From a virus (lineage: Duplodnaviria > Caudoviricetes): 64,000 nt of DNA. Below the pieces are notes generated by a model that saw only the letters and a list, made by a program, of their open reading frames with translations, made no database searches and was not told the origin of the DNA. Positions 23,393-57,452 of the stretch are shown here, in pieces. The stretch covers positions 64,001-128,000 of the IMG/VR virus record IMGVR_UViG_3300032295_003840; one strand, written 5' to 3'. A program made the position numbers and the translations under genes. Position 1 is the first letter of the stretch. Each line of letters opens with the position of its first letter.

Positions 23393-26329
23393 TTAGGCCT
23401 GTGCTTCGGTCCAGCTTAGACGCATGTTGGAAATAATTGCTGGTCCGGCATTTTGATTTCTAAGCACAATGGTCAGCATGTCTGGTCCGTTGGGAAAGCC
23501 CGGTGTCTTGGCACTGCCTGGGCCACTGACAATGCTGTTACCTAAGTCACGAACGTTGCTGATGTCATAGTTGTCGGCACCAGTCGAGGTAACGAAACCA
23601 AAGATCTGTTCACCACCAGTAACAGTGGTTGTATTGCCAGTATGGTCAATGATCTGTGCCAGACTACCTGAACCAATCTGAGTAACAATGCTGGTTATAC
23701 CCCAGACGGTGGGAAACACTGGTGCGGTACTTCCACCAAAGACCGTGGGATTAAGAACACCCAGAACCTGAATCGAGGTATTACACACCAGACCCAGGCC
23801 CCGCATCTGCAGCTGCATGCGGTTTACAATTTCTCGTACGCCAAATTGTCCAGCAATGCTGTTGTCCACACTGGGTGCCAGACGTATGCTCAGCACGGCA
23901 ATGCTGGTGTTGGCTGCAATTGTAGTCAAAGATGTCAGTCGTGTATAAGCAAAAACAATGCTGCGGTCATCGTCATAGCCACCGTCCATGATTACACTGG
24001 TGCCCCAGTGCATTACTGTTGGTGCGCAGTTACATTCAATGTAGGTTACACTGCACTGTGAACTATTGCTTACTGCACCGCCTTCGTATTCTGTGGGAAC
24101 AAAGGTCAGGTTGCTGGTTGATCCACCCACCAGACGACGACTTAGTTGTTTCAGAGTCCAGGTACTGGCAATCGACGTATTGGCTTCCTTGCCTGAATAG
24201 GTCATGACTTCCACATTGGCGCCCTGCTGTACCAGAATTCTACCGTCATTGGGCCAGTAGGTTGCATCGCTGACCACCATCTGAACATCTCCAGATCCTA
24301 AACTCACACCCGGTGTGGCCACGTTATTGCTGACCAGCTTGGTATAGGGGCCGACGTTGAATACTTCGTAGCGAGCCGGCAGGTTACCAGATCGCATGTA
24401 GGCCTGATTGTTGACGTTGTTGTTGGCAATCTTATGGCAATAGACTACATCGCCATTGGTCATGCGCCAGCCAAATCTAACGAAACCTGCACCATACCAG
24501 GTATAGTCAATGTAGGCCATCTGCATTTTGCCAATGTCCAGATTATAACCACTGGGACCCGACCCATCGCAACGATCCAGGTTCCAGCTGCTCTGTGGTA
24601 TGCGCAGATTCTGCGTTACATTGACTCGGAGGCCTGCAGCAGTGTCGCCACGATAGGGTGGAGCAATCTCCATGCTGGTGGCAGTGTCTATGGCAGTAAC
24701 CTGAAAACTTGATCCACGGATCACAATGTTGTCGCCCACCACTAGCTGTTTATGAAACTTGGTGTTTAAACCAGTGACTGTGGTTGAGCCACTGGTGGCT
24801 GTCACTGTACCAAAAAGCTCTTTGATGCTCTGACGGCGTACTGCGAACAAAGTCTGACCATCGTATTCATAGTAGAAACCATTCTGAGCATCGAACATAC
24901 CAACTCTAGACGACGCACCCTTCCAGTTCTTTACAGTGATCTGAGCATTGGTGCCGCCAGGATTGGTGTCAGTGCTGGCCTGTGCTACGTTGTAGGTCAG
25001 TGTACGGCTGGTGGCAACCGAAGTAGTCACGCTCTGCACAACAAAGGTACCATTGTAGGGGTTGGTGGAACCCAGATTGGTTTCCACGCCTTCGACCACA
25101 ATGCTGACACCGCTGAGCAGCGACAGGGTTTGCTGTGTAGTAACACTGACCGATGTTCCAACCGCAGTTATGGTATTGATGTCAAAGTGTGAGCAGAACT
25201 TGGTGCCGGTACTCATGGCCAGGCCCTTGCCTGACTGATAACGGAAGTAGCGTCGAGTCTGACGTATGGCTGACACACCTTCCTGAATATTGTTGGTGCT
25301 GATCAGAACACCGCCGTCGCCGGCTCGATGCACAAAGGTTGCCTCGGGGCGTGGCATGAACATGGCATTGCCCAGTGTGGGCGAAGTAGCACCAGTCTGA
25401 ACATTCAGGGTAAGATAGCGGAAGCTAGTGGCGGTGGGGACGTCGTAGACACTCCAGTTACCATTGATGGTGGTTGTGGTAGCTGAGTTAACCAGGATTG
25501 GCGATCCAGGCATCAATCCATGTTTACCTGTGGTGTTCACAGTCACCATGCTGCCCGACAACGCAGAGTTAGTAGCAGCATTGTCTGACGCCACGGTGGA
25601 TACAATGAAACGCATTGGTACATTGTTGATGTCGTAGTTGTAGCCTGCCTGTACTATGCTGGCACTGGTGTAGACGCTGCCGTTGATCTGACCCTTGCCA
25701 ATGTAGGTAAAGTTTGTTGTCGTAGAGCTGACAATGGCAAACACGCCCTCGGCGTCCAGGTTGCTGGTGTAGCTTACGTTGACCAGATCACTGGTGACCA
25801 AACCATGGGCACCAACTGTGGTGACCGTGATTAAAGATCTGGGTGTCTGGTTACCGCCACTGATACCACCGGTGGTGACGTTCAGGCTGTTGGCACCGCC
25901 GCGATAGAAGTAGCCAGGATAGTTCTGCAGCAGGCTTAGGCTTTCCCATTTAATGGGCTGCAGGCCAAATTCAAAGTCAGTGTCGATCAGACTTTCTGGC
26001 GCAGCAACTCGCAGTTTATTGGCAGGATCCTGCAGCACTTCTATGGGCGCAAAACGCTCGTCGGCAACATCCTCCATGATCATTATGGGATCGGATGCAT
26101 TCATGCTGGTGGTGTTGTAGGCCAGAGTAAACTGCGTGCCTGTGCTGCTGAACGGACAGGTATAGCTGGCCAGTGTTAGATCTGGATCGCTAAAGTTATA
26201 GAGTACAGTGTTACTGGTAACATTGACCACCAACAGCAACTGTTCCCTGCTGATGATACGATTGGGAATCGTTATGGTTTTGGTTGCGGGGTCAAATGTA
26301 TAGTATTCACTTAAAATGCGTTTCGCCAT
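23393..26329 (-). CDS. Large beta-rich virion structural/fibre protein
   Basis: 978 aa; KLRV..PESLIDTDFEFGLQP.KWE, RQTRRYFRYQSGKG, YTWYGAG and HWGTSVIMDG motifs recalled from T4-like structural proteins; lies immediately before gp13. Confidence 0.75.
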   Translation of the reverse strand: MAKRILSEYYTFDPATKTITIPNRIISREQLLLVVNVTSNTVLYNFSDPDLTLASYTCPFSSTGTQFTLAYNTTSMNASDPIMIMEDVADERFAPIEVLQDPANKLRVAAPESLIDTDFEFGLQPIKWESLSLLQNYPGYFYRGGANSLNVTTGGISGGNQTPRSLITVTTVGAHGLVTSDLVNVSYTSNLDAEGVFAIVSSTTTNFTYIGKGQINGSVYTSASIVQAGYNYDINNVPMRFIVSTVASDNAATNSALSGSMVTVNTTGKHGLMPGSPILVNSATTTTINGNWSVYDVPTATSFRYLTLNVQTGATSPTLGNAMFMPRPEATFVHRAGDGGVLISTNNIQEGVSAIRQTRRYFRYQSGKGLAMSTGTKFCSHFDINTITAVGTSVSVTTQQTLSLLSGVSIVVEGVETNLGSTNPYNGTFVVQSVTTSVATSRTLTYNVAQASTDTNPGGTNAQITVKNWKGASSRVGMFDAQNGFYYEYDGQTLFAVRRQSIKELFGTVTATSGSTTVTGLNTKFHKQLVVGDNIVIRGSSFQVTAIDTATSMEIAPPYRGDTAAGLRVNVTQNLRIPQSSWNLDRCDGSGPSGYNLDIGKMQMAYIDYTWYGAGFVRFGWRMTNGDVVYCHKIANNNVNNQAYMRSGNLPARYEVFNVGPYTKLVSNNVATPGVSLGSGDVQMVVSDATYWPNDGRILVQQGANVEVMTYSGKEANTSIASTWTLKQLSRRLVGGSTSNLTFVPTEYEGGAVSNSSQCSVTYIECNCAPTVMHWGTSVIMDGGYDDDRSIVFAYTRLTSLTTIAANTSIAVLSIRLAPSVDNSIAGQFGVREIVNRMQLQMRGLGLVCNTSIQVLGVLNPTVFGGSTAPVFPTVWGITSIVTQIGSGSLAQIIDHTGNTTTVTGGEQIFGFVTSTGADNYDISNVRDLGNSIVSGPGSAKTPGFPNGPDMLTIVLRNQNAGPAIISNMRLSWTEAQA

Positions 26330-44505: not shown

Positions 44506-45939
44506 TTAGAAATTAACTACAATATTTATTTTCTCGTTTTGATTCAAATTGCGTGTAACCGGAGCACGATAATCCAGATACAATAATTCACCGCTGTAGT
44601 GCTGCAGCTCAGGTGCAACACTGGTAATGCTGCTGACTGCTTCGCTGTAGCCTGTGCCAGCAATGACGTCACCAGCAGCGATTTGTTTTAGACGCAGAGT
44701 ATTTGATGTATCAATGCGACTCAGTTCTGTTGCAGAAACAACGCTGGTATCGCTGGCCACGGGCTGAATAAACTGCAGTCTGGTGGTGCTGGCGCTTTGG
44801 AATACTGCCAGCACTGACGCACCCGCGGTGTTGCTTAGCAAGATGTCGTTGGTGGGCGCTGTAGTAGCAGTGCTGGTCATGACCAGGGTTCGTGCAACAC
44901 GCACAGTATCTGCCACGGCAACTGTGGTGGTGGTATAGGCGGCTGACAATGTCTGATACACCAGAGGATTTTTAATCAGAGCCACGGTGCGGAAATCCTG
45001 ATTTACTGGAACGTCTTCGCCCTGATAGGCCTGTACACTGCCAACAATCATGACATTGTGCGCATTGCATTCTGAAACTAGGTTGCTGGCATGGCCACCG
45101 GTGGGTGCAATAATGGCTACGGCACTGGCCTGAGACACCACTGACGCTGCGCTGAATTGAATCTTGGCCCAGGTATAACCCGATCCTGGATCCAGTATGG
45201 TGACACCTGCAATGGCACCAGCACTGGTCACTGCCACAGCCTGGGCACCAGACCCATCGCCATAGATGACCACGGTTGGATTGCTGCTGTAGCTACCACC
45301 CCCGGTGACCAGTATGACATCCAGACCCAGTCGATTGCTGACCGAACTAACAGTGCTGGGCACTGGTATGTAGTTGGCTGTAACAAAGTCTGCGTCGCCT
45401 GCAGTAATGGTGTACATGTATTTCCAGATATAGCCATCGGCCGTGGTCTGGGGTGCAAAGCTGGTCGACGTTGGCGCAACGGTGCTGAGAACGCCTGTGG
45501 TAAAGGTGGCATTGGCACCATTGTACAGACACTTGTAGACCGAACTGTTGCTGGTAACATAGACAATCATGTTGCTTTCGCTTAGATTGAATTTACCCGT
45601 GGCAGTTGATTGGGCTGTGCTGATGTCATGCCGATACATGTCATAGCGCGTGCCACTGATCCAGTTGTTTCTGGCTGTGCAGAGTCGAACATCGCCGGCG
45701 GTTACCCGCACTGCTGCCATGGCATCGCGCCATAGATTGTGTTCATTGATGTAGTTGTCTGTGGGCGTCGGAGGCTGCACATCGCTGGTGACTTGTCCGC
45801 TCTGAGCTGTGAAGTTTGCGCTCAGTGTATTATTCCAGCTCTGCGGGCGTGCCAGCATCATGTAGATGCTGTCTATGGCAAATCTGGTGGCGAAACCGCT
45901 GGCAGCGGCTACGCGAAATTTGCTGGTTACTATGGCCAT
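44506..45939 (-). CDS. gp8: Baseplate wedge subunit
   Basis: AIVT.KFR, R.NW.SG..YDMY, VYKCL.N, DGYIWKYMYTI and SGE.LY.D.R..VTR...Q.E motifs. Confidence 0.93.
   Translation of the reverse strand: MAIVTSKFRVAAASGFATRFAIDSIYMMLARPQSWNNTLSANFTAQSGQVTSDVQPPTPTDNYINEHNLWRDAMAAVRVTAGDVRLCTARNNWISGTRYDMYRHDISTAQSTATGKFNLSESNMIVYVTSNSSVYKCLYNGANATFTTGVLSTVAPTSTSFAPQTTADGYIWKYMYTITAGDADFVTANYIPVPSTVSSVSNRLGLDVILVTGGGSYSSNPTVVIYGDGSGAQAVAVTSAGAIAGVTILDPGSGYTWAKIQFSAASVVSQASAVAIIAPTGGHASNLVSECNAHNVMIVGSVQAYQGEDVPVNQDFRTVALIKNPLVYQTLSAAYTTTTVAVADTVRVARTLVMTSTATTAPTNDILLSNTAGASVLAVFQSASTTRLQFIQPVASDTSVVSATELSRIDTSNTLRLKQIAAGDVIAGTGYSEAVSSITSVAPELQHYSGELLYLDYRAPVTRNLNQNEKINIVVNF
44523..44530 (-). promoter_or_regulatory. 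Late promoter for the VrlC-like gene
   Basis: AATAAATA 34 bp before the ATG at 44489. Confidence 0.6.
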
Positions 45940-45975: not shown

Positions 45976-48900
45976 TTAACTGGTGCCTATGACACTGATA
46001 TTTAAAAAGTCTGATGCCAGACTCTGCCAACTACCAGTCAGTCCTGTGCCTATGTCAATGCTGATGCTGGTGGACTGACTGCTGCTGATCAGCAGGGTAA
46101 ATCTGCTGAAGGTTCCAGACCGTTTGACGTTGTAGGGAACCCAGATCCAGCTGGCAGTGCTGGTGACATCACCATGTGATACTGTGTTGCTGCTGATGCT
46201 GTTGCTGCTGTTCAGATATACTGATCCACGATATAGCTGGGTTCGGCCCTGTGCAATGTCCTTGTGATTTCTTTGTACTTCATCGTCGAATCCAACTACA
46301 AAGGTTCCTGTCGACGAAACTGCAATGGTCAGCTGGTTCAGAACTTCGTCGGCGCTGTCGGCCAGATCCTTGGTCCAGGTTACCAGCAGCAGTACACTGC
46401 TGCCCGCTGCGACGCTGATGCTGGTGCTGAGCAGCGTGGTGCTGGTGCCCAGCGTCAGATTCGATGTAGTGTGATACAGTTCTCTGATCTGAGTATAATC
46501 TACATTGGCATCCTGTACTATCAGGCTTTCATCGTTGCTGATGGTGGCACCGGCCTTGTCAAAGCTGGCTCCACCAGGACGTCCCAGTGCTCGTGGTGGC
46601 TCGAATCCTCGAATTCTGCGGAAACTTGTTGCTGTGGAACTCAGCAGAGCTGCTCGTATGGCCAGGCTGCTGACTATCAGGGTATTGTTATCAACAATGC
46701 TGATTACACGCAGCAGTTGCCCGCTGACATCCAGATAGCCAGTGCGTCGATCACTGAAATCAAATTCTGTGACTTCTTCGAAGACCTTTGTGGCTTCGCT
46801 AACCGTAACCGAGGTTGCAATGAACTGCGTGCCAGTTCCTACTATGGTGAGCTGACTGCAGTTGGCTGGGAATATACAGGCCATGGGAACATTGAAGAAA
46901 TTGCCAGTAATTGCCGAACCAGTCACCAGTATAGATGAATCACTGAAAATACGCAGCACAGTAAAACTGCTGGTCTCTACAATCTCGTTATTTTCATCCA
47001 ATGTATCCAATACAACGGTAAGATCGTCTAGTCGAGTGCCATAGCCATTGCCCTGATCGTCTGTGCCTGGCAACCCATCGGTGGCCCAGCGTGTATTCAA
47101 TGATGTGTTGACAATGTTGTCGTCTGCACCATAGATCAGATAACCAGTCTGGCCGTCAATGGTAGTAGTGCGCGGTGTGGCAAATGTGGCTGTCTTGCCA
47201 GTAATGTTGGCATAGATGCCGCCTCCGCTGACCTGAACGTCGTTGTCGTTGTTTACAGACACAATGGTGAATCTGCGATCTGCCTGCAGACCAGCTACAG
47301 TGGTGGATATTGTAATTGGTGCATTGAATCGGCTAGCACCAACAACGTTGCGCAACACCAGGCTGGTGTCACTCGGCACAGATTCAATGGCAAGTGCGCG
47401 TCGAGATACTCCAGAGCCAGCTCCGCCGCCCCAGACACGATTGCTGGTGCTGCTCCAGGCCGCAGTGACAGTCAGGGTAGTCTGATTAATCACACTATTA
47501 ACGGTTCTTGTCTCGACAAAATTTAATTGAACATTGCTCAATGATACATCATACAGACCATAGCTGGTGGTGCCACCAGTGCTATAGCTGTTGATGCTGG
47601 CCTGATAGGGCACCGATGTAACCGTACCCACGGGTCTGAGAACCAAATACTGATCTCCAAATATTGTTCGACGTCGTGGATCTTCGTCCACGTAGTAGTC
47701 TTCCAGCACCGTGGCTCCGGCCTGAGTACTGCGCACTGGCACTCGCACAACACTGCCGCTGGACAAAACGTTGCGATTATTGGACCGGGTTTCCGTGGGT
47801 ATTGCTACAACGTTTATAAAGTTAATCAGATACTCACTGAGTCGCTGAGCTGCATTGCTGGTCTGAGTAGTAAAACTTTTTTGCCAGATCAACCAGGTCA
47901 CCGATGTATTTTCTGTAGTTGTTATGTTTGCCGTGATTTCAAATGCATTGCCATAGTTACTGGTCATGCCATGCGGAAACGTTGCATTGGTTGGGGTCAC
48001 CAATGCGCCCCAGCGAGTCCAGCCCAGTGCACTGGGAGTCTGACCTGCAGTAGGTGGCTGAGGATTGGGATTGGTGCTGTACCAGGCTTCCAAGTCCTGG
48101 CCAGTAAACACTGGTGCCAGCTCATTGTTGTAGTAACTGCTTGTGCCAACACCGCTGGATCCAGCGAATCCGCTTACATTCAGCCTATGTGTTCTGCCAT
48201 ACACTGGCACGGTCTGTAAAAATCTGCTGTGCACCGTGGCACTGCTGCCATAGCTGAACAGAATGCCAAATGCGGTTGTTCGATTATCATAATTGCCGAA
48301 CCAACCGCTGCTAATAGTACCATAACGAGTACTGGTTTTTCTTATGTCCAGTGTTGGATTGGGGTTGCGATTCAAACTGGTAGCATTGTAACCATCCTGA
48401 GGATAGCGAGCAATCACGCCAGTGCTGGTGCCAATAAGGTTGGTATCAAAGACAACATAGCTAAGAAAGAATGTATTATCAATAACAAGTCTGGCGTTAT
48501 TGCCAATGTTGTAGTAAAACGCTCTTGCTGTGTATGATGTGGTCGGATTGAAAATATCTCCTTGGATGGCGTTCCAGGAACGCAGCAGTAGTCTGGAGTT
48601 ACTGGTACCAGGTATGCTGGTGGTTATCGCCACACTGCTTGGAATTCTAGAAAAATTTACACGCAGGGTAGATGAGTCGTTGAACGCAATCCGCCCATCG
48701 GAAAAAATCAGTGTAGCCAGACCCGTGCGGGTTGATATACCGCTAACATCCGGAGGATAGAATTCAGACCATTCCAGGCTAGTAGCCCAAACTGGGTTGC
48801 TGGTATTGTAGGTACCAGTAGCATAGTTATATCTGGCATACGCCGCGCCTGGATTGCCATTGTCTGTGGATACATCACCACCTCTGAATATAACAGGACT

Positions 48901-51900
48901 GGCACTGTTTTCAGGAAAGCTTACTTCCCATTTTTGATTTGATGGTTGAGTAATATAAGCCTGTGTAAAAAATGGATATACACGTAGTTCGGGGTTAGAA
49001 AAATTAGCTGTAACTAGTCCTGCAGTCACAGGAACATAGTAACCAGAATTCTGATCATAGACGTTGGGTGGAATATTATAAGTAGTATTATAACTGCGGG
49101 TATAGCTTACTCCGTCTTGATTTTCAGAAGACACAAGTAAACCAAAATAATTGCCGTAGGTGAGCCGTTCATAGGAAAACCCATAGACGTTATAGAATGT
49201 CGCTGGATTCTGAGCAGGATGACCAAAATGTACGGTTATACTGCTCAGATCTGACTCTTTGAATTCCAGTTCAAAGATATACTTTGAATTGCCTGCAGTA
49301 ACAGTGCTGGTCTGCCAGTCGCCTTCGAATCTTACAATGTGACTTCGATTGGGTGCAGTACCCACGGTGGCCGAGTATATACGCTGCACCGAAGTTACAT
49401 CGTTGTATTCTTGAGTGGAATAATTATAATCGAAAAACCCTGGATATAAATAGCCAGGATCATAGAGGCCTAAACCCTCCTGACCGGCAAAACTGGTAAG
49501 TCCATCGGTATCACGTGGCGTATTGAATACTATATATGCACGATTTGAGACATGAATCGATGTAACTACTGTCCTACCAACCCAGATAGTCCAGGGTAAA
49601 GTCACACTAAAATAACCATTGATCAGTGTTCCACTGGTGGGTGTGGTCAGTGCAGTGCCCAGTGCAGCAGCGCCTCGAATAGTCTGGGTAGTCTGAGCAA
49701 CAAAACCAAAAGCAATTGTTGCCCCCGTACCGGCTCGACCCTTGCGTCCATTGTAGTGTATGGTGTAGTAACGGTTGGGCGCAGTACCAGAAACTCCATG
49801 ATGCACAGAATCCAGTCTGTTTTCCACCGATGGAAAAACGCCTATGAAGGGTCCAGTATGGAAAGGCCTAAAAACTCCGAGGAAACTCGATGGAACGCTG
49901 GTGTCGCTGGCTACGAATCCACTGGCATGAACATAGAGCTTGGTGGTCGATGTATTCAGTATCTGCACAGGAAACGGCAAGGGTATGTCGTAGCGTGTGC
50001 TGCGATCAGTTCCAAATGCAGTGGTACTGATGGCCGAATAGTTGCTGGTGGTCAGCGTAAAGGACAGCGTTGTTCCCGAAATTGTAGTGCCCAGAGATAG
50101 ACTGGTCTGAAATTCCCAGCTTTCCAGAACTGCTGGTATGCTGGTAACCTGTGACCAACGACCAAACAAGGGCTTGGTAACTGTCAAACTAGCAGAAACG
50201 GGATAGATTTCACTGAGTAAAAAACTGTTGATGCCAACAACACTGGTGCTGCCCGAGGTAAAGGTAAGATCGCCAGCAAGTGCCAGATTGTCCAGATAGA
50301 TTCGGGGCTCGGGTTGACCGTCTTCAATGGCAGGTATCGTGGTTTCAGCTGTAATGCCAGCGCTGGTGTTGACATTGGTAATCAGCAGATCTCGGCGAAA
50401 ACGTGTATTGACTCCGCTTACATAGATAAAGTAGTCTGGGGCAACAGGAGTCTGTGCAGCTATGGTCACAGTTCCTGTCACAGGAAGTTCTTGTATGGTC
50501 AGCACCGCAGGATAGAAATTATATTCTGCAGTCTGTGCAATATTGCGTCCAGAAAATCTCCACCAGGTCTGTAGACTCGAAGGTATCAGTTCCGAAGAAA
50601 ACTGCGTGCCTGTACCAGTAAAGGTAATTTCATCGCCGCCGGCCTGCTGCACTGCATTGATGGTGCCAGTGATGCTGGTCACGGGTGCGCTATAACGAAC
50701 AAAATCGCGATAGAACAATCCAACGCCTGGTATGCTGTATCTCAAAGTCTGTCCTGTGGTCACAGGCACATCAACAGTTCCAGTGATGCTGGTAAAGGCA
50801 AATGATTCCTGAAAGACTGTGGCGCCGTCAATGGCACCCTGCAGAGCAAAGGTAACATTTTCGCCGCCATAGCTAAAGGCTGGATCAAAAACCACAGCAC
50901 CGGCCGATGTAGTGGCGCTGGTACCGGTTCTGAAATTGGCCAGACGGTCCCAGGTAACACCAGGCACCAGATAAAAACTATTGGACGAAGTAAATAGTCG
51001 TACCTCGCTGACGATCTGATTGGACTGCGAAAACTGTGTAGTAGAACTCACAGCCATGCTGGTTGAATTGTCCAGCAAAATTTCACCAAAAAGATTTCTG
51101 CCCGTGGGGTGTAGTTGTTCCAGCACGGCATCCTGCCAGCGACTCAGATCGGTGCGCGTACGTATCACATAGCTAAACTTTTGCCAGTAGATGCTGTCCT
51201 GTATGACCTGATCTGAACTCAGCAGACTGGCACTGCCACGCTGACGACCCGGCAGTGTTTCTAACTCGTTGGTGTTAAGTACTGTTATAGTGCTGCTGAC
51301 ATTGTTGGCATGATCATAGTATACGCCAGTAATGGTTTCTGAACTGTTAAAGGTTCCGATCAGACTTCGATTCTGCAGACGCAGATCCCAGGCGCCATAG
51401 GTGTTGACAACTTCTTCGACAATGGCCGTGGCATTGCTGCTGTTGCCTGTGATTTCAACTGCAGTCAATTGTCTGGGGTTGCCAGTGACGGCATTGACAC
51501 GCAGTTTCTTTTCAACATACCAGTCAGCATCGGACGGTCTAAAAAGCTGCTCGCCTGGTAATTTTATGGTGATTTCATCGTCAAAGAATGCGCGGAAGAA
51601 GAATTTAAAACTTTCTTCGCTGCCTCGACTACGATAAAAATCGCGAAAATGTTTGACCAATATGGTGCGATCCAGTGCCGAGGTCTGTGGCAGATTGGGA
51701 GCATAGATTGACATAAACTTCGTGGCCAGACTGCTGGCCGTGGTGTCGATGTCAACGTTGAGTTGAACATTTTGAATTATGCTCTGCGGATTGCCTTCTT
51801 GTTCCAGCCACTCAAAATATTTGGTGACGAACACAACAAACAACGGATAAAATTCCTGAACATAGTCAGGAATCTGCGCTGGCAGCAGATCAGAAACTTT

Positions 51901-51915
51901 TTTATCTAGGCTCAT
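45976..51915 (-). CDS. gp7: Baseplate wedge initiator (gp7-like) with very large multi-domain insertion
   Basis: N-terminal QIP.YV...YP.F..F...YFEWLE, FY.SRGS..S..FFFR and IQDS.YWQ.FSYVI...HP.G..FGE motifs; between gp6 and gp8. Confidence 0.8.
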   Translation of the reverse strand: MSLDKKVSDLLPAQIPDYVQEFYPLFVVFVTKYFEWLEQEGNPQSIIQNVQLNVDIDTTASSLATKFMSIYAPNLPQTSALDRTILVKHFRDFYRSRGSEESFKFFFRAFFDDEITIKLPGEQLFRPSDADWYVEKKLRVNAVTGNPRQLTAVEITGNSSNATAIVEEVVNTYGAWDLRLQNRSLIGTFNSSETITGVYYDHANNVSSTITVLNTNELETLPGRQRGSASLLSSDQVIQDSIYWQKFSYVIRTRTDLSRWQDAVLEQLHPTGRNLFGEILLDNSTSMAVSSTTQFSQSNQIVSEVRLFTSSNSFYLVPGVTWDRLANFRTGTSATTSAGAVVFDPAFSYGGENVTFALQGAIDGATVFQESFAFTSITGTVDVPVTTGQTLRYSIPGVGLFYRDFVRYSAPVTSITGTINAVQQAGGDEITFTGTGTQFSSELIPSSLQTWWRFSGRNIAQTAEYNFYPAVLTIQELPVTGTVTIAAQTPVAPDYFIYVSGVNTRFRRDLLITNVNTSAGITAETTIPAIEDGQPEPRIYLDNLALAGDLTFTSGSTSVVGINSFLLSEIYPVSASLTVTKPLFGRWSQVTSIPAVLESWEFQTSLSLGTTISGTTLSFTLTTSNYSAISTTAFGTDRSTRYDIPLPFPVQILNTSTTKLYVHASGFVASDTSVPSSFLGVFRPFHTGPFIGVFPSVENRLDSVHHGVSGTAPNRYYTIHYNGRKGRAGTGATIAFGFVAQTTQTIRGAAALGTALTTPTSGTLINGYFSVTLPWTIWVGRTVVTSIHVSNRAYIVFNTPRDTDGLTSFAGQEGLGLYDPGYLYPGFFDYNYSTQEYNDVTSVQRIYSATVGTAPNRSHIVRFEGDWQTSTVTAGNSKYIFELEFKESDLSSITVHFGHPAQNPATFYNVYGFSYERLTYGNYFGLLVSSENQDGVSYTRSYNTTYNIPPNVYDQNSGYYVPVTAGLVTANFSNPELRVYPFFTQAYITQPSNQKWEVSFPENSASPVIFRGGDVSTDNGNPGAAYARYNYATGTYNTSNPVWATSLEWSEFYPPDVSGISTRTGLATLIFSDGRIAFNDSSTLRVNFSRIPSSVAITTSIPGTSNSRLLLRSWNAIQGDIFNPTTSYTARAFYYNIGNNARLVIDNTFFLSYVVFDTNLIGTSTGVIARYPQDGYNATSLNRNPNPTLDIRKTSTRYGTISSGWFGNYDNRTTAFGILFSYGSSATVHSRFLQTVPVYGRTHRLNVSGFAGSSGVGTSSYYNNELAPVFTGQDLEAWYSTNPNPQPPTAGQTPSALGWTRWGALVTPTNATFPHGMTSNYGNAFEITANITTTENTSVTWLIWQKSFTTQTSNAAQRLSEYLINFINVVAIPTETRSNNRNVLSSGSVVRVPVRSTQAGATVLEDYYVDEDPRRRTIFGDQYLVLRPVGTVTSVPYQASINSYSTGGTTSYGLYDVSLSNVQLNFVETRTVNSVINQTTLTVTAAWSSTSNRVWGGGAGSGVSRRALAIESVPSDTSLVLRNVVGASRFNAPITISTTVAGLQADRRFTIVSVNNDNDVQVSGGGIYANITGKTATFATPRTTTIDGQTGYLIYGADDNIVNTSLNTRWATDGLPGTDDQGNGYGTRLDDLTVVLDTLDENNEIVETSSFTVLRIFSDSSILVTGSAITGNFFNVPMACIFPANCSQLTIVGTGTQFIATSVTVSEATKVFEEVTEFDFSDRRTGYLDVSGQLLRVISIVDNNTLIVSSLAIRAALLSSTATSFRRIRGFEPPRALGRPGGASFDKAGATISNDESLIVQDANVDYTQIRELYHTTSNLTLGTSTTLLSTSISVAAGSSVLLLVTWTKDLADSADEVLNQLTIAVSSTGTFVVGFDDEVQRNHKDIAQGRTQLYRGSVYLNSSNSISSNTVSHGDVTSTASWIWVPYNVKRSGTFSRFTLLISSSQSTSISIDIGTGLTGSWQSLASDFLNISVIGTS

Positions 51916-53759
51916 GTATTAGTTCCTATGGTATTGATTCTAATACCATTATCCAAGGCAGCCACTGAATCATTGGTTGAATCGTCCAGCAGCAAAATTT
52001 CATTGTAGGTAGGACGAATGTCATCGTCGGTTTCTTGTTGCTCAATATTTATTCTCACGCTGGAGACTTGTCCAACATAGCCCACTATCTGCAGGGTATT
52101 GATGTTCATGGCACCCGTGGCATAGTTAACTGTGCCAATGTTTTGTTCTATCACAGCACCGTTGGACATGTCAATCAATTGCAGAACTCCAGTGCCCAGA
52201 GGATTGGGCGGCATCTCATTGGGCTGATCATGAATTTCCACGGTATAAGACACGGCTTCTTTGGTGGTTACAAATCTGGTGCTGCGTACTGTTCCTGGAT
52301 TGATCCTCACAGGAAACAGCACTGGCCCAGTAAATACGTCGGTGCCAATGTTGGGCGTGATGCGTTTCTGCAGACGTTTAATGATGTTGATGCTGAGCAG
52401 ACTATCGTCAACATCCATGAGCTGTTCATGCAGCTGTGATTCATAGTAGACCTGATTAAAACGTCGCAGATTGGCTTCAATAAAACTATTAATCTTGTTG
52501 TTGATCAACACGCTGATCTGCTGAGCACTGCGATTGGTTCGGGCTGTGCTGTAGCGTGCAGTAATTAAAAATCCAATGTAGGTATAGCTGGGATCAACAA
52601 AAGCATGTCGCATGGTAACCAGACTATGCGGCTGCAGTATGTCTCGAATAATTCTGTTCTTTTCGTCGGTGGTCAGTACATAGCCAGTTTTAGGTGCAAT
52701 GCTGATGTAGACGATACCATATTCTGGCGGACTGTTGCGCTCGCCGCCCCAGACATTGACACTGCGTGCCGCTGGCAGTTCTCTGAGTATCAGATTGGCA
52801 TAGTCTTGTTCTGTCACAGCACGATTCTGTGATGTATAGGAACTCAGTGCATTGAATCGTATGTCGTCGATGCTTTCTCGATCCAGTCCACCCACGGGTT
52901 TGCTGACAGTGGCAACGCTGCGATCGCCTGAACTTTCTCCGCCTATGGTCGACGTGTTCCAACTCAACGACAGATTACCAGGAACGTTGCCCACTGCACC
53001 GTCGCTGACCAGATAAGAAATTTTAACAACGTCGCTGGCGCTGAGATTTTTACCAATGACATCATCACCAAAATAAATCTGATAGAATCCTTCGGTATTT
53101 TCTTCCAGGAAGAATACATTGGTGGTTGCAGTAATGTTGACAATGTTGTCAGCCGCAGTAAATGTCTGACTGAAACTGCTGGTGCCAGAGTATTGCACAG
53201 CAACCTGTATGCTGCGGGTGTCTACATTCTGATTGGGGATCACATACTTGTTGGCCGGAGAGCTGGTGGCACCCACGGTGTAGTAATACTCCAAAGCTCG
53301 ACCCTGATATAATTTTACATTCTCAAAGGTATAGACACCGTCCACTGGTGTAGCCACATAGGATTCTATGGTATAAAAGGGCAGGGTAACAGAGTCAACC
53401 ACTGTGTTGAATAGTTTGTATCGATCCAAGGTTACAAACGACGGCGTATTGGGTACATTTTGCAGTGTAATATTCACCAAGGCTTCGGCACTGCGTGCAG
53501 ATCTGGGTGTGTAGCTTAGCTGTTTGGCCAGGCTTACAACACTGGCACGTTTCAAGGCTGTATCAATGAATATCTCGTTGCCCACCATGTTGGCCAACAC
53601 AGCATTGTAGTGCGTGTTGTAGGCCAGCAGATCTACCAGAACGCTGAGGTTACTGGCATCAAAATCATAGTCAGTAAAGGCGCTCTGAGATCTCAGATAA
53701 TCTTTTAGATTCTCCTTGATGGTATCAAAATCTAGTTCGGTTACTCTGATGTTGGCCAT
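51912..53759 (-). CDS. gp6: Baseplate wedge subunit
   Basis: LDFD.IK.NL..YL, FTDYDF, LAYNTHY, Y.I.FGD..IG, Q.RAVT..DY and WGGE...PP.YG motifs. Confidence 0.97.
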   Translation of the reverse strand: MANIRVTELDFDTIKENLKDYLRSQSAFTDYDFDASNLSVLVDLLAYNTHYNAVLANMVGNEIFIDTALKRASVVSLAKQLSYTPRSARSAEALVNITLQNVPNTPSFVTLDRYKLFNTVVDSVTLPFYTIESYVATPVDGVYTFENVKLYQGRALEYYYTVGATSSPANKYVIPNQNVDTRSIQVAVQYSGTSSFSQTFTAADNIVNITATTNVFFLEENTEGFYQIYFGDDVIGKNLSASDVVKISYLVSDGAVGNVPGNLSLSWNTSTIGGESSGDRSVATVSKPVGGLDRESIDDIRFNALSSYTSQNRAVTEQDYANLILRELPAARSVNVWGGERNSPPEYGIVYISIAPKTGYVLTTDEKNRIIRDILQPHSLVTMRHAFVDPSYTYIGFLITARYSTARTNRSAQQISVLINNKINSFIEANLRRFNQVYYESQLHEQLMDVDDSLLSINIIKRLQKRITPNIGTDVFTGPVLFPVRINPGTVRSTRFVTTKEAVSYTVEIHDQPNEMPPNPLGTGVLQLIDMSNGAVIEQNIGTVNYATGAMNINTLQIVGYVGQVSSVRINIEQQETDDDIRPTYNEILLLDDSTNDSVAALDNGIRINTIGTNT

Positions 53760-54456: not shown

Positions 54457-54660
54457 TTATTGGCCGCGCTCTCGGCGCATGAGTTCTTGAAATCGTGGAT
54501 ACCACTTTTCAATCTCTTCATGCTGTGCTTCGGTGTGCGGCGGATCGGGTATGTTGGGATTAAATTTAATCACATGATCAATTTTTTGTGGGATGTCTTC
54601 CCAACGGTTAACGGTCATTATTTTACCATTAACCATTACTGTGAATTCTGATTTTTTCAT
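54457..54660 (-). CDS. Conserved small hypothetical protein between gp5 and PAAR
   Basis: DIP..IDHVIKF.P.IP.PPHT..QH.EI..W pattern; ATG at 54660 overlaps the gp5 stop (ATGA). Confidence 0.7.
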   Translation of the reverse strand: MKKSEFTVMVNGKIMTVNRWEDIPQKIDHVIKFNPNIPDPPHTEAQHEEIEKWYPRFQELMRRERGQ

Positions 54661-57452
54661 GGTCGGCTCAGATCGCATAAGTAGAGTTTTAACTGTCCAT
54701 CGCCCGTGGTTGCAATCTTATGATCCATGAAGGTAGCAACCTTGGGATATCCTCTGGGTCCATTTACTGGCAATGCTGCACGATTACCATTGGGATTGAA
54801 ACTGCAATGCACCCAGCCCTGGAACACTCCGCTGAATGTTCCATATTCCAGCAGCAGCTGATCATAGGCTACATTGTCGCGAATCCACAGGGCAGCATCA
54901 TATAGATTTGGTGCGGCTTTTCCGCCACCAAACTGCATGTCGGCGGCCAGGCCCTCACCATGCTGTGCCTCGCCAGGTCCTATGCGGAACACACTGGTCA
55001 GGCTCATCTGTGGGAAACGCTTCTTGATGGGTTCCAGCACATTGACACATAGTCCACGCAGGTTGTCCAGTATCTGTGCCTTGGTCAATCCATTGGCTGT
55101 GGGTATGCTGCTCTTGAAGAAAGCGCGCGCCTGGGTCGCCGTGGCAATATGCGATGGCAGAATATCGCCCAGAGTATAATTGGCACTGAGCTGTATGCTC
55201 AGTGGGAACTCCCGATAGCTATTGAACTCGCCGATCTTGTAGGGTGTGGGTGGTACAATGATGGCAATTTTGGTGTCAGATCGTTTGCAACCAGCACGGG
55301 CAATCTCTTTACCACGGTCTACTTCTTCCTGAGTCTTCTTACCAGCAGCCACGTCTTTTTCCTGCTTTAGTGGATCGTCGCCGGCATCGCCAGAGCTACG
55401 GTCATCTGTATCCTGAGTACATTCAACACGATCTAGATCTACGGGTTTGTTGTTCGTGGGTGTGGCTGTGCTCAGCACTTCCAGACCTGAGTCGGCAGCC
55501 GACGCAGATTTGCCATCGTTAAAGTCAATGATGCTGCCATCCAGTGCCATGCTTCCACCGGACTTGATGTTCATGCTATTGCTGGCCTGCAGAAACATGC
55601 TGCCGCCGGCCTTGACATGAAAGTCCTGTTGCGCTTCCATGTAGATGTTCTTGGCCTGAGTCTTAAGATTGCCTGCCACGTTCAGTACTGCATCGTTTTT
55701 AACATTGATGGTGGTGTTGCCCCAGACTTCCACATCCAGTGTGTCGCGTATGAACACCTTGGCAGCATTTTCTACAGTAATGTCATAGCCGCCTTTGATG
55801 TAGACGTGATTGTTTCGGACATAGATGCCGTAGTGGTCGCCCTGTACGTGCTGATGATAGGTTCCGTTTTCGTCAATTTCCACAAAGGTACCAGTGCGGT
55901 GATACATGTGCAGACGCTGGTGTGCGGGTGTGTCATCCATTTCAATGACATGACCGCTTTCGCTTTCCACGACATGGTTATAGGGATACTTGCCGCAGAA
56001 TGCTGGCTTGGGTTCACTCCAGCTACCACCATTGGCTGTGTCGACACTTACAACACGATTTCTTTCCTTGGCCTCTACAATGGTGCCCGAGGTATCGCCT
56101 GTGGCCAATTTATTGGTGTCGGGACGATCAGTATAATCACAGGTAGGATATACACTGTTGGGATCTTTAAAGGCATCGGGACTGCCCAGCTTGGGATCGT
56201 TCAGAGTCTCAGTAGGCGGTGTTGTCTGAGGATCGGGCTGCGCAGTATTGGGTTTGGCCTGATCTGGCGGACGTGACGCAGGCTGACCCAGAAGTTCAGC
56301 AACCCTGGTACCATTGGGGCTGGCACCCACAGTATAAGGAGGTGTAAAACTATTAACTATGCCCAGAATTTTTACGCCATAGCTAAATCTGCGAATATCA
56401 CCGCCACCACCCACCATGCTGGTAACCAATACATTGGCATCGGCCTGGTTCGTCGGTGGGTAATTTATACCTGTCAACCTCTGAGCAGTACCAGAATCTA
56501 TGGACAGTCTCATGAATGCCGCTGTAGCTTGTGCGGCATTGTCTGGGTCCAACAACAGGTCAGGATTGCTGACAAATCGTTCATCACCATAGGCCAGTTT
56601 ACTGAGTCTGCTGTACAGGCTTTTACCTGTGAATTGTATGAAACCACGTCCACGATATTTAAAACCATCGCCAACCTGAAAGTGCTTGAATCCTTCGGGC
56701 TTTGATCTGTCTGCACAGGTCACGCCATACATGTAATCAAAAAATTGTATGTCATTTTGGCTTACGCGTTCCCATTCTTCTGGGGAAAGTATTGCGCATC
56801 GTCGTTGTCCAAATACTTCGAGAATGCGAGGAAATTTTGTACCGCGATAACTGATTTCTGCCTTGGTGGTTCCACCGGCTTCTTTGAGAGCATTACCAAT
56901 GACCGCTGCCACAAAGTAATGATTGGTTATACCCTGTCGCTTGCAGGCCAGCACAATTTTTTCTAAATTTTCCTGTATCTTTTGATTTGTTGGTGCAGGC
57001 TTGGCTACAACTGAATTGTTCTGATCGGTTCGCACCGGATTGCCGCTGCCATCGCTGACCACGTTGCCGCTGCCATCACGCAGCACGTTGTTGTCACCTT
57101 TTGACTGATTGGCTTCCTGTGCACCACAGGCACGTGTCTTGTCGGGTAATCCACCCATGGTGCCCATGATCATGGGCTGCTGTTTGTCACGACCATCCAG
57201 GAAGAATCCAACTACCCAGCTGCCTTCTAAGGGCCCAACTGGTGAGGATCCTTTGCCGCTGACACCTGCACTGGTGATGCTCTGCATGGGTATGGCCCAG
57301 GGCAGATCGCCTGTGGGCAGAACTTCTTTGTTGTCGATGTGATAGCCTAAAATGCGCACACGGCAACGTCCCAGTTTTTCTGGATCTTCGCGATCTTCAA
57401 CGACGCCGATCCACCAATAAAATCCGTCACGTCCAAAAATATTATCGTTCAT
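54657..57452 (-). CDS. gp5: Baseplate hub/central spike with GH19 and peptidase M15-like domains
   Basis: OB-fold WWIGVVEDR.DP.KLGR.RVR and LPWA; GH19 GDG.KYRGRG.IQ.TG; YPYNHV.E.ESGH..E.DDTP spike; C-terminal H-x6-D...WVH. Confidence 0.95.
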   Translation of the reverse strand: MNDNIFGRDGFYWWIGVVEDREDPEKLGRCRVRILGYHIDNKEVLPTGDLPWAIPMQSITSAGVSGKGSSPVGPLEGSWVVGFFLDGRDKQQPMIMGTMGGLPDKTRACGAQEANQSKGDNNVLRDGSGNVVSDGSGNPVRTDQNNSVVAKPAPTNQKIQENLEKIVLACKRQGITNHYFVAAVIGNALKEAGGTTKAEISYRGTKFPRILEVFGQRRCAILSPEEWERVSQNDIQFFDYMYGVTCADRSKPEGFKHFQVGDGFKYRGRGFIQFTGKSLYSRLSKLAYGDERFVSNPDLLLDPDNAAQATAAFMRLSIDSGTAQRLTGINYPPTNQADANVLVTSMVGGGGDIRRFSYGVKILGIVNSFTPPYTVGASPNGTRVAELLGQPASRPPDQAKPNTAQPDPQTTPPTETLNDPKLGSPDAFKDPNSVYPTCDYTDRPDTNKLATGDTSGTIVEAKERNRVVSVDTANGGSWSEPKPAFCGKYPYNHVVESESGHVIEMDDTPAHQRLHMYHRTGTFVEIDENGTYHQHVQGDHYGIYVRNNHVYIKGGYDITVENAAKVFIRDTLDVEVWGNTTINVKNDAVLNVAGNLKTQAKNIYMEAQQDFHVKAGGSMFLQASNSMNIKSGGSMALDGSIIDFNDGKSASAADSGLEVLSTATPTNNKPVDLDRVECTQDTDDRSSGDAGDDPLKQEKDVAAGKKTQEEVDRGKEIARAGCKRSDTKIAIIVPPTPYKIGEFNSYREFPLSIQLSANYTLGDILPSHIATATQARAFFKSSIPTANGLTKAQILDNLRGLCVNVLEPIKKRFPQMSLTSVFRIGPGEAQHGEGLAADMQFGGGKAAPNLYDAALWIRDNVAYDQLLLEYGTFSGVFQGWVHCSFNPNGNRAALPVNGPRGYPKVATFMDHKIATTGDGQLKLYLCDLSRP

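Follow-up and report, generated by a model that had tools for sequence, protein, structure and literature searches.

Results

Gene identity and relatives

The 64,000-nucleotide stretch analysed here (the window; positions 64,001 to 128,000 of the Caudoviricetes record IMGVR_UViG_3300032295_003840 in IMG/VR) carries on its minus strand, at 45976-51915, a single open reading frame (ORF) of 1979 amino acids (aa), P0001, which by the ORF list and its translation holds all of the sequence strings under study and encodes a gp7-like baseplate wedge protein. Pfam family PF23786 (Baseplate_wedge) is matched at residues 69-123 with 37.7 bits, the cut-off being 27, and baseplate wedge families of PHROG are found over the first ~300 residues, with E-values of 1e-29 to 1e-44. 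The gene lies in the order gp5 (54657-57452), gp6 (51912-53759), gp7 and gp8 (44506-45939), with a 2641-aa DUF4815 protein on the other flank beyond gp8, and the gp6-gp7-gp8 order is repeated in locus L002. Given the Pfam and PHROG wedge matches together with the gp5, gp6 and gp8 neighbours, P0001 is the gp7 homologue of a T4-like phage. Residue i of the protein corresponds to window coordinate 51915-3(i-1).

Homologue searches over 5.8 billion and 1.84 billion proteins yielded about 25 true gp7 homologues, every one of them metagenomic. Full-length members measure 1953-2028 aa, and two divergent, N-terminally cut members 2127-2161 aa. No shorter orthologue was found in the databases searched: the ~25 relatives are all built alike, and the shorter matches are truncated by the ends of contigs, as is P0034. 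Relatives in the phage collection cover the first ~300 residues only, with identities of 22-35%, and include proteins from phages of Desulfovibrio and Ochrobactrum, Pseudomonas phage pf16, Caulobacter phage Cr30 and cyanophages, and beyond residue ~316 no phage record of that collection is matched. A whole-family gp7 profile found no match among the PDB sequences, and the ESM Atlas held no useful look-alike for gp7.

The protein consists of an intact wedge core (residues 1-316) at the N-terminus, followed by peripheral domains that add ~1,660 residues. We read this added part as a chain of small six-stranded β-barrels related to a ~60-aa N-terminal domain of tail fibres, with three or four barrels at residues 376-606, then a fast-evolving, slightly AT-richer β-sandwich cassette at ~635-1368, four further barrel units at 1383-1760 and finally a conserved end domain at 1770-1979. 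The features, all on the minus strand, are as follows.

45976..51915, minus: gp7-like baseplate wedge gene, P0001 (Pfam PF23786, PHROG wedge families, gp6 and gp8 flanks)
50968..51915, minus: conserved wedge core, residues 1-316 (75-87% identity among homologues; matches Cr30 gp7)
50476..50673, minus: F1, residues 415-480, clear first half of the module (hairpin and GTGTQF) with a 34-aa tail (pLDDT 25-35)
50275..50475, minus: F2, residues 481-547, clear first half (GVNTRF) with a tail in which no second half is detectable (pLDDT 25-35)
50098..50274, minus: F3, residues 548-606, a complete small barrel module (hhalign, shuffle test, predicted local distance difference test (pLDDT) 52-72)
47812..50013, minus: variable cassette, residues ~635-1368, with two GTAPNR β-sandwich-like domains, a hypervariable stretch and a jelly roll
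47800..48534, minus: reelin-subrepeat- or carbohydrate-binding module (CBM)-like jelly roll, residues ~1128-1372 (VIA-align on the long model)
47455..47769, minus: S1 and S2, residues 1383-1487, a locally folded stretch with the terminal hairpin TVNSVINQTTLTV
47212..47454, minus: S3 and S4, residues 1488-1568, two hairpins of second-half type (profile matches at ~1515 and ~1560)
46900..47193, minus: I1, residues 1575-1672, a module whose first half is followed by a ~27-aa insert
46636..46866, minus: I2, residues 1684-1760, a complete module in which GTGTQF is followed by a ~20-aa insert
45979..46608, minus: C-terminal domain, residues 1770-1979 (63-72% identity; kept in the divergent P0019)

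Distribution of the module halves

An initial annotation of this gene had proposed that a module found intact elsewhere is split here, with first halves in a row and, after a long intervening region, second halves in a row. The seven strings on which it relied are all present at the sites it gave: GTGTQF (G434, at 50616), GVNTRF (G501, at 50415) and GINSF (G561, at 50235) upstream, and YYVDED (at ~47697), TVNSVINQTTLTV (at 47505), AIESVPSDTSLVL (at 47391) and TIVSVNNDNDVQV (at 47268) downstream. The gp7 motifs occur above chance and are kept in about 25 metagenomic homologues.

As an outside reference, an intact module from a protein other than gp7 (residues 505-575 of the window ORF 23393-26329) and its 53 homologues provided whole-module, first-half and second-half profiles, of which the half-profiles were run over 19 gp7 homologues. 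Across these, the first-half profile matches only at residues ~435, ~510, ~555 and ~1695, and the second-half profile only at ~1485, ~1515, ~1560, ~1650 and ~1740; P0001 has four first-half matches, compared to 0.18 per shuffled sequence. Since half-profiles from an outside family sort in this manner across 19 homologues and above shuffles, the motif halves are genuinely sorted along gp7, and their sorting is conserved.

The assignment of individual halves requires correction. The GINSF unit (548-606), previously taken as a lone first half, has its own second half and forms a complete module, and YYVDED...DQYLVL, previously taken as a second half, has no similarity to one (hhalign probability <1%) and falls within a stretch that AlphaFold2 folded locally, with pLDDT of 52-77 in the long model described below. 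Two downstream modules, at 1575-1672 and 1684-1760, had been absent from the annotation. After these corrections, F1 (415-480) and F2 (481-547) have a detectable first half only, and S2, S3 and S4 (1429-1568) a detectable second half only, so that the profile matches point to two first-half-only units followed by two or three second-half-only units in bracket order.

Such an order could arise from a two-level nest, in which residues 415-446 would close with ~1524-1566 and 481-513 with ~1488-1522. F3, the cassette, S1 and S2 would then be an insert in the loop after GxGTxF, and the chain would run out and back as a stiff arm with the lectin-like cassette at its tip, an arrangement that we consider possible but doubtful. 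The clean sorting of first and second halves by outside-family half-profiles is what it predicts, and the tolerance of the post-GxGTxF loop for inserts in I1 and I2 would accommodate it. On the other hand, orphan first and second halves are equal in number only when local closure is assumed for S2 and I1, an assumption based on low-confidence models. We infer instead, with modest confidence, that the barrels probably fold one after another along the chain. F1 and F2 would then be whole barrels whose second halves have diverged past detection, and the hairpins at residues 1505-1563 would be part of one local barrel, or of short local units.

Individual barrel units

F3 closes locally, as two results show. 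Its hhalign alignment with the outside profile (probability 95%, E 2.4e-8) covers 53 of the 60 columns. In an anchored test, in which the first half was held fixed and the tail columns were shuffled 50 times, its real tail beat 49 of the 50 shuffles. The same test gave 50 of 50 for I2, used as the positive control. The anchored test took the place of tail-only and head-only comparisons with the half-profiles, none of which rose above a column-shuffle null, even the F3 tail reaching only 7/60. A comparison of the gp7 units with two internal complete modules by hhalign was likewise set aside: short motifs only were aligned, even for complete against complete, and the comparison is without power because the two complete modules themselves aligned in no other way. 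Searched singly against Pfam and PHROG, the gp7 units gave no direct matches.

F1 reaches a hhalign probability of 62% against the outside module profile, confident in its first half only. Several features of F1 and F2 nevertheless favour whole barrels. First, they measure 66 and 67 aa, near the whole-module length of ~60 aa, and they tile head to tail, the final G of one unit being the start of the next. Next, the alignment of F1 with F2 in hhalign spans the full 66 columns. Finally, both tails contain three conserved hydrophobic stretches each, as strands 3-5 would require; in the nested arrangement these 34-aa tails would have no role. The F1 tail also aligns with the second half of F3, at low confidence, and the loop of the F2 tail has a 10-aa deletion in three homologues.

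Downstream of the cassette, S2 appears to depend on the sequence that adjoins it. With the upstream sequence included, S1 and S2 reach pLDDT of 52-79, compared to about 45 when the chain is cut at residue 1435, a dependence on nearby residues that is consistent with consecutive folding. By eye, though with no statistical support, residues 1429-1487 can be read as GTVTSV, TGGTTSY, a strand and a hairpin. S3 and S4 are related to each other (hhalign 83%), as are S4 and I1 (87%), and a stretch of 62 aa shows the elements in canonical order (S3 hairpin, GASRF, short strand, S4 hairpin), which would suit a local barrel but again has no statistical support. Neither the S3 hairpin with S4 nor residues 1427-1490 could be accepted as a whole module, the hhalign alignments being co-linear but of low confidence.

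The second-half units also permit a different explanation, in which the orphan halves are completed by strands of an adjacent gp7 subunit or of a different baseplate protein, or in which S2-S4 make up a single sheet-like domain that runs on without a break and repeats every 40 aa. S2, S3 and S4 do repeat every 35-46 aa with a conserved hairpin each, the S3 head has strongly conserved Trp and Ser/Thr residues, and a six-stranded barrel does not fit into units of 38-45 aa; in the T4 baseplate, moreover, gp7 stands in a six-fold ring beside gp6 and gp8. However, AlphaFold2 gave separate hairpins only in the short model, and we regard an explanation of this kind as unlikely.

I1 and I2 appear to be whole modules with small local inserts only, as expected of barrels that fold consecutively. 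The short model places a barrel over residues 1581-1683 of I1, with VIA Z of 4.5-5.2 to tail-tip barrels, and P0020 has GISTGF at the position aligned to the I1 first half. I2 matches the outside profile with a hhalign probability of 93% (E 3.5e-7), and its model resembles small barrels of phage tail tips and baseplates (VIA Z 6.6 to 8ck1_A, 6.0 to 8rk3_o and 5.0 to 8iyk_J). The C-terminal domain that follows (1770-1979) found no family match in a Pfam scan or with the whole-family gp7 profile against PDB sequences.

Structure predictions and covariation

Two AlphaFold2 models were considered, a long one of residues 405-1600 from 22 aligned sequences (mean pLDDT 51.9, predicted template modelling score (pTM) 0.37) and a short one of residues 1435-1775 from 27 sequences (mean pLDDT 51.6), both read out as confidence scores and fold matches. 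In the long model, F1 and F2 (405-536) and S3 and S4 (1490-1600) have pLDDT of 25-37, while F3 reaches 52-72 and the S2 hairpin 58-79. In the short model, S3 and S4 form one hairpin each at 52-62, I1 has 57-67, I2 65-69 and S2 about 45. Covariation was assessed in 15-17 related sequences. By residual distance correlation (mirror-tree), F1 and S4 are reciprocal best partners at 0.46, and F2-S3 has -0.09; in a mutual-information block test, F2 and S3 are each other's best match, and S4 pairs best with F1.

A number of these results weigh against consecutive folding. The anchored shuffle test found no added score for a second half in the F1 and F2 tails, the heads of S2-S4 gave no added score for a first half against the module profile, and the GASRF-type motif is missing from the three most divergent homologues. 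The nested arrangement would explain why the missing halves leave no trace in the F1 and F2 tails and in the S3 and S4 heads. If the barrels fold locally, the bracket order of two orphan first halves and then two orphan second halves is a coincidence. Whole modules reach pLDDT of 58-79 in the very runs in which F1, F2, S3 and S4 stay at 25-37 or form hairpins only, so that exactly the four units that would pair at a distance are the ones left unfolded. Such a failure is what would be expected of incomplete units; as a property of the models, it fits missed partners and over-diverged units equally well. The nested pairing also ranks first of the 6 possible matchings in both covariation measures, if weakly, given the 15-17 sequences.

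Other observations speak for consecutive barrels. Although both regions were present in one chain, AlphaFold2 left the distant halves unfolded. The covariation that favours the nest comes from 15-17 related sequences and makes it the best of only 6 matchings, with the negative residual correlation of F2 and S3 at odds with the pairing. The innermost level of nesting, the third of the proposed pairs (residue 561 with 1471), is contradicted, because F3 closes locally within 548-606. Overall, a plain chain of barrels fits slightly better than a distant joining of halves; the models do not demonstrate nesting of modules across ~1,000 residues.

The variable cassette

Compared to P0001, the homologues are 75-87% identical in residues 1-350 and 55-64% identical in the N-terminal barrels; identity drops to 18-34% between residues 800 and 1150 and recovers to 60-72% toward the C-terminus. 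The cassette has a GC content of 0.464, compared to 0.50 next door. P0018 and P0019 keep the regions 313-595 and 1168-1977, and their middle differs and is larger. In both of these proteins a ~330-aa glycine-rich insert lies directly after F3 (residue ~606, window ~50080-50100).

The V-shaped conservation along the chain might be taken in favour of an out-and-back arm; conserved ends and a variable middle would, however, be given alike by such an arm and by a side branch on a baseplate-bound scaffold.

Within the cassette, residues ~735-915 (window 49171-49713) form a β-sandwich-like region without a Pfam family that is also found in secreted multi-domain proteins of cells, namely subtilases, an RCC1-repeat protein and a LamG protein. 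The jelly roll has pLDDT of mostly 64-86 in the long model. It resembles reelin subrepeats (2e26_A, VIA Z 12.2, root-mean-square deviation 2.8, 141 residues aligned) and also matches 6a48_A (Z 11.9) and many CBM, MAM and lectin chains (Z 8-10). Foldseek with the long model returned weak jelly-roll matches only. The jelly roll spans 245 residues, of which ~141-148 are aligned, and a ~80-aa low-confidence stretch (~1136-1212) looks inserted.

The initial annotation had further proposed a receptor-binding appendage built into gp7 as a rigid arm. The hypervariable middle and the lectin- or CBM-like jelly roll make an exchangeable, sugar-binding-like cassette within gp7, framed by conserved parts, plausible, and the fold matches suggest that it may bind glycans; the rigid out-and-back arm is unproven.

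Comparison with known systems

The wedge core is shared with the T4 gp7 family, as illustrated by Cr30 gp7 (35% identity over P0001 residues 1-200, E 2e-36), and so are the position between gp6 and gp8 and the presence of large peripheral domains. The site of the additional domains differs. Residues 1-196 and 232-316 of P0001 match residues 2-198 and 680-764 of Cr30 gp7 (L001:5998-8301; E 2e-36 and 3e-8), so that Cr30 has an extra ~480 aa inside the wedge core, whereas in P0001 the core is continuous and the extra domains come after it. In the T4-type profile phrog_964 the wedge core lies late, unlike in P0001. As the extra domains of Cr30 are located inside the wedge core, domain insertion is a trait of the gp7 family that occurs at different points of the chain. 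The split of the Cr30 core by about 480 aa can also be counted in favour of nesting, as can the Si3 insertion of the cyanobacterial RNA polymerase β′ subunit, a documented case of nested barrels, in which eight sandwich-barrel hybrid motifs are reported, four of them combining elements that lie far apart in the sequence (PMC10895346). If the gp7 nest were real, its build would be the same as in Si3, although the fold family differs and the depth proposed for gp7 is at most two.

The outside module is one example of a domain of ~60 aa that is widespread at the N-terminus of tail fibres (phrog_1980, E 2.9e-11; phrog_2712; phrog_24607), and it weakly matches residues 7-67 of the F2-pyocin side fibre 25ve_A. 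F3 and I2 align with this barrel over the whole domain, that is, the hairpin, GxGTxF, a strand and the closing hairpin in ~60 aa. While in tail fibres the domain stands at the fibre start, in gp7 it is repeated inside a wedge protein, and several of the copies keep one recognisable half only, unlike the tail-fibre domain. In the ORF at 23393-26329, a 978-aa 'virion structural protein' (phrog_5838), the tail-fibre N-terminal barrel is found mid-protein (window 24620-24850, minus strand) and not at a fibre start.

The gp7-like protein of cyanophage S-SSM5 also has repeated units, which are of a GxGY...P type. Its single match to the outside profiles, to the first half at 0.9 bits, is not credible, the second-half and whole-module profiles finding nothing, and homology of the P0001 modules to its repeat was rejected, the S-SSM5 repeat being a different module.

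Five genes downstream of gp8 (2641, 2621, 183, 404 and 978 aa; window 23393-44489) gave no match to gp9, gp10, gp11 or gp12 when scanned against Pfam and PHROGs. Reelin subrepeat B is, however, recognised in the product of 2621 aa (PF21471, E 1e-22).

Discussion

While the halves of the barrel module are clearly sorted along the gp7-like protein, the barrels themselves probably fold consecutively. Under such an arrangement, the cassette would be exposed and face the host, anchored to the baseplate by the conserved flanks and the end domain, to which further virion proteins would dock. The analysis shows the identity of the gene, its domain map, the sorted motif halves, the conservation profile and the jelly-roll fold; the barrel-by-barrel folding, the binding of glycans and the position on the baseplate are proposed.

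The gp7 subunit connects the inner baseplate to the host-sensing periphery. Since no gp9-gp12 was recognised among the five genes scanned downstream of gp8, and gp7 instead carries a hypervariable, lectin-like cassette between conserved arrays of barrels, the wedge may itself take on part of the recognition of the host. If the outer barrels did close across 1,000 residues, this would explain how large cassettes can be exchanged without disturbing the arm.

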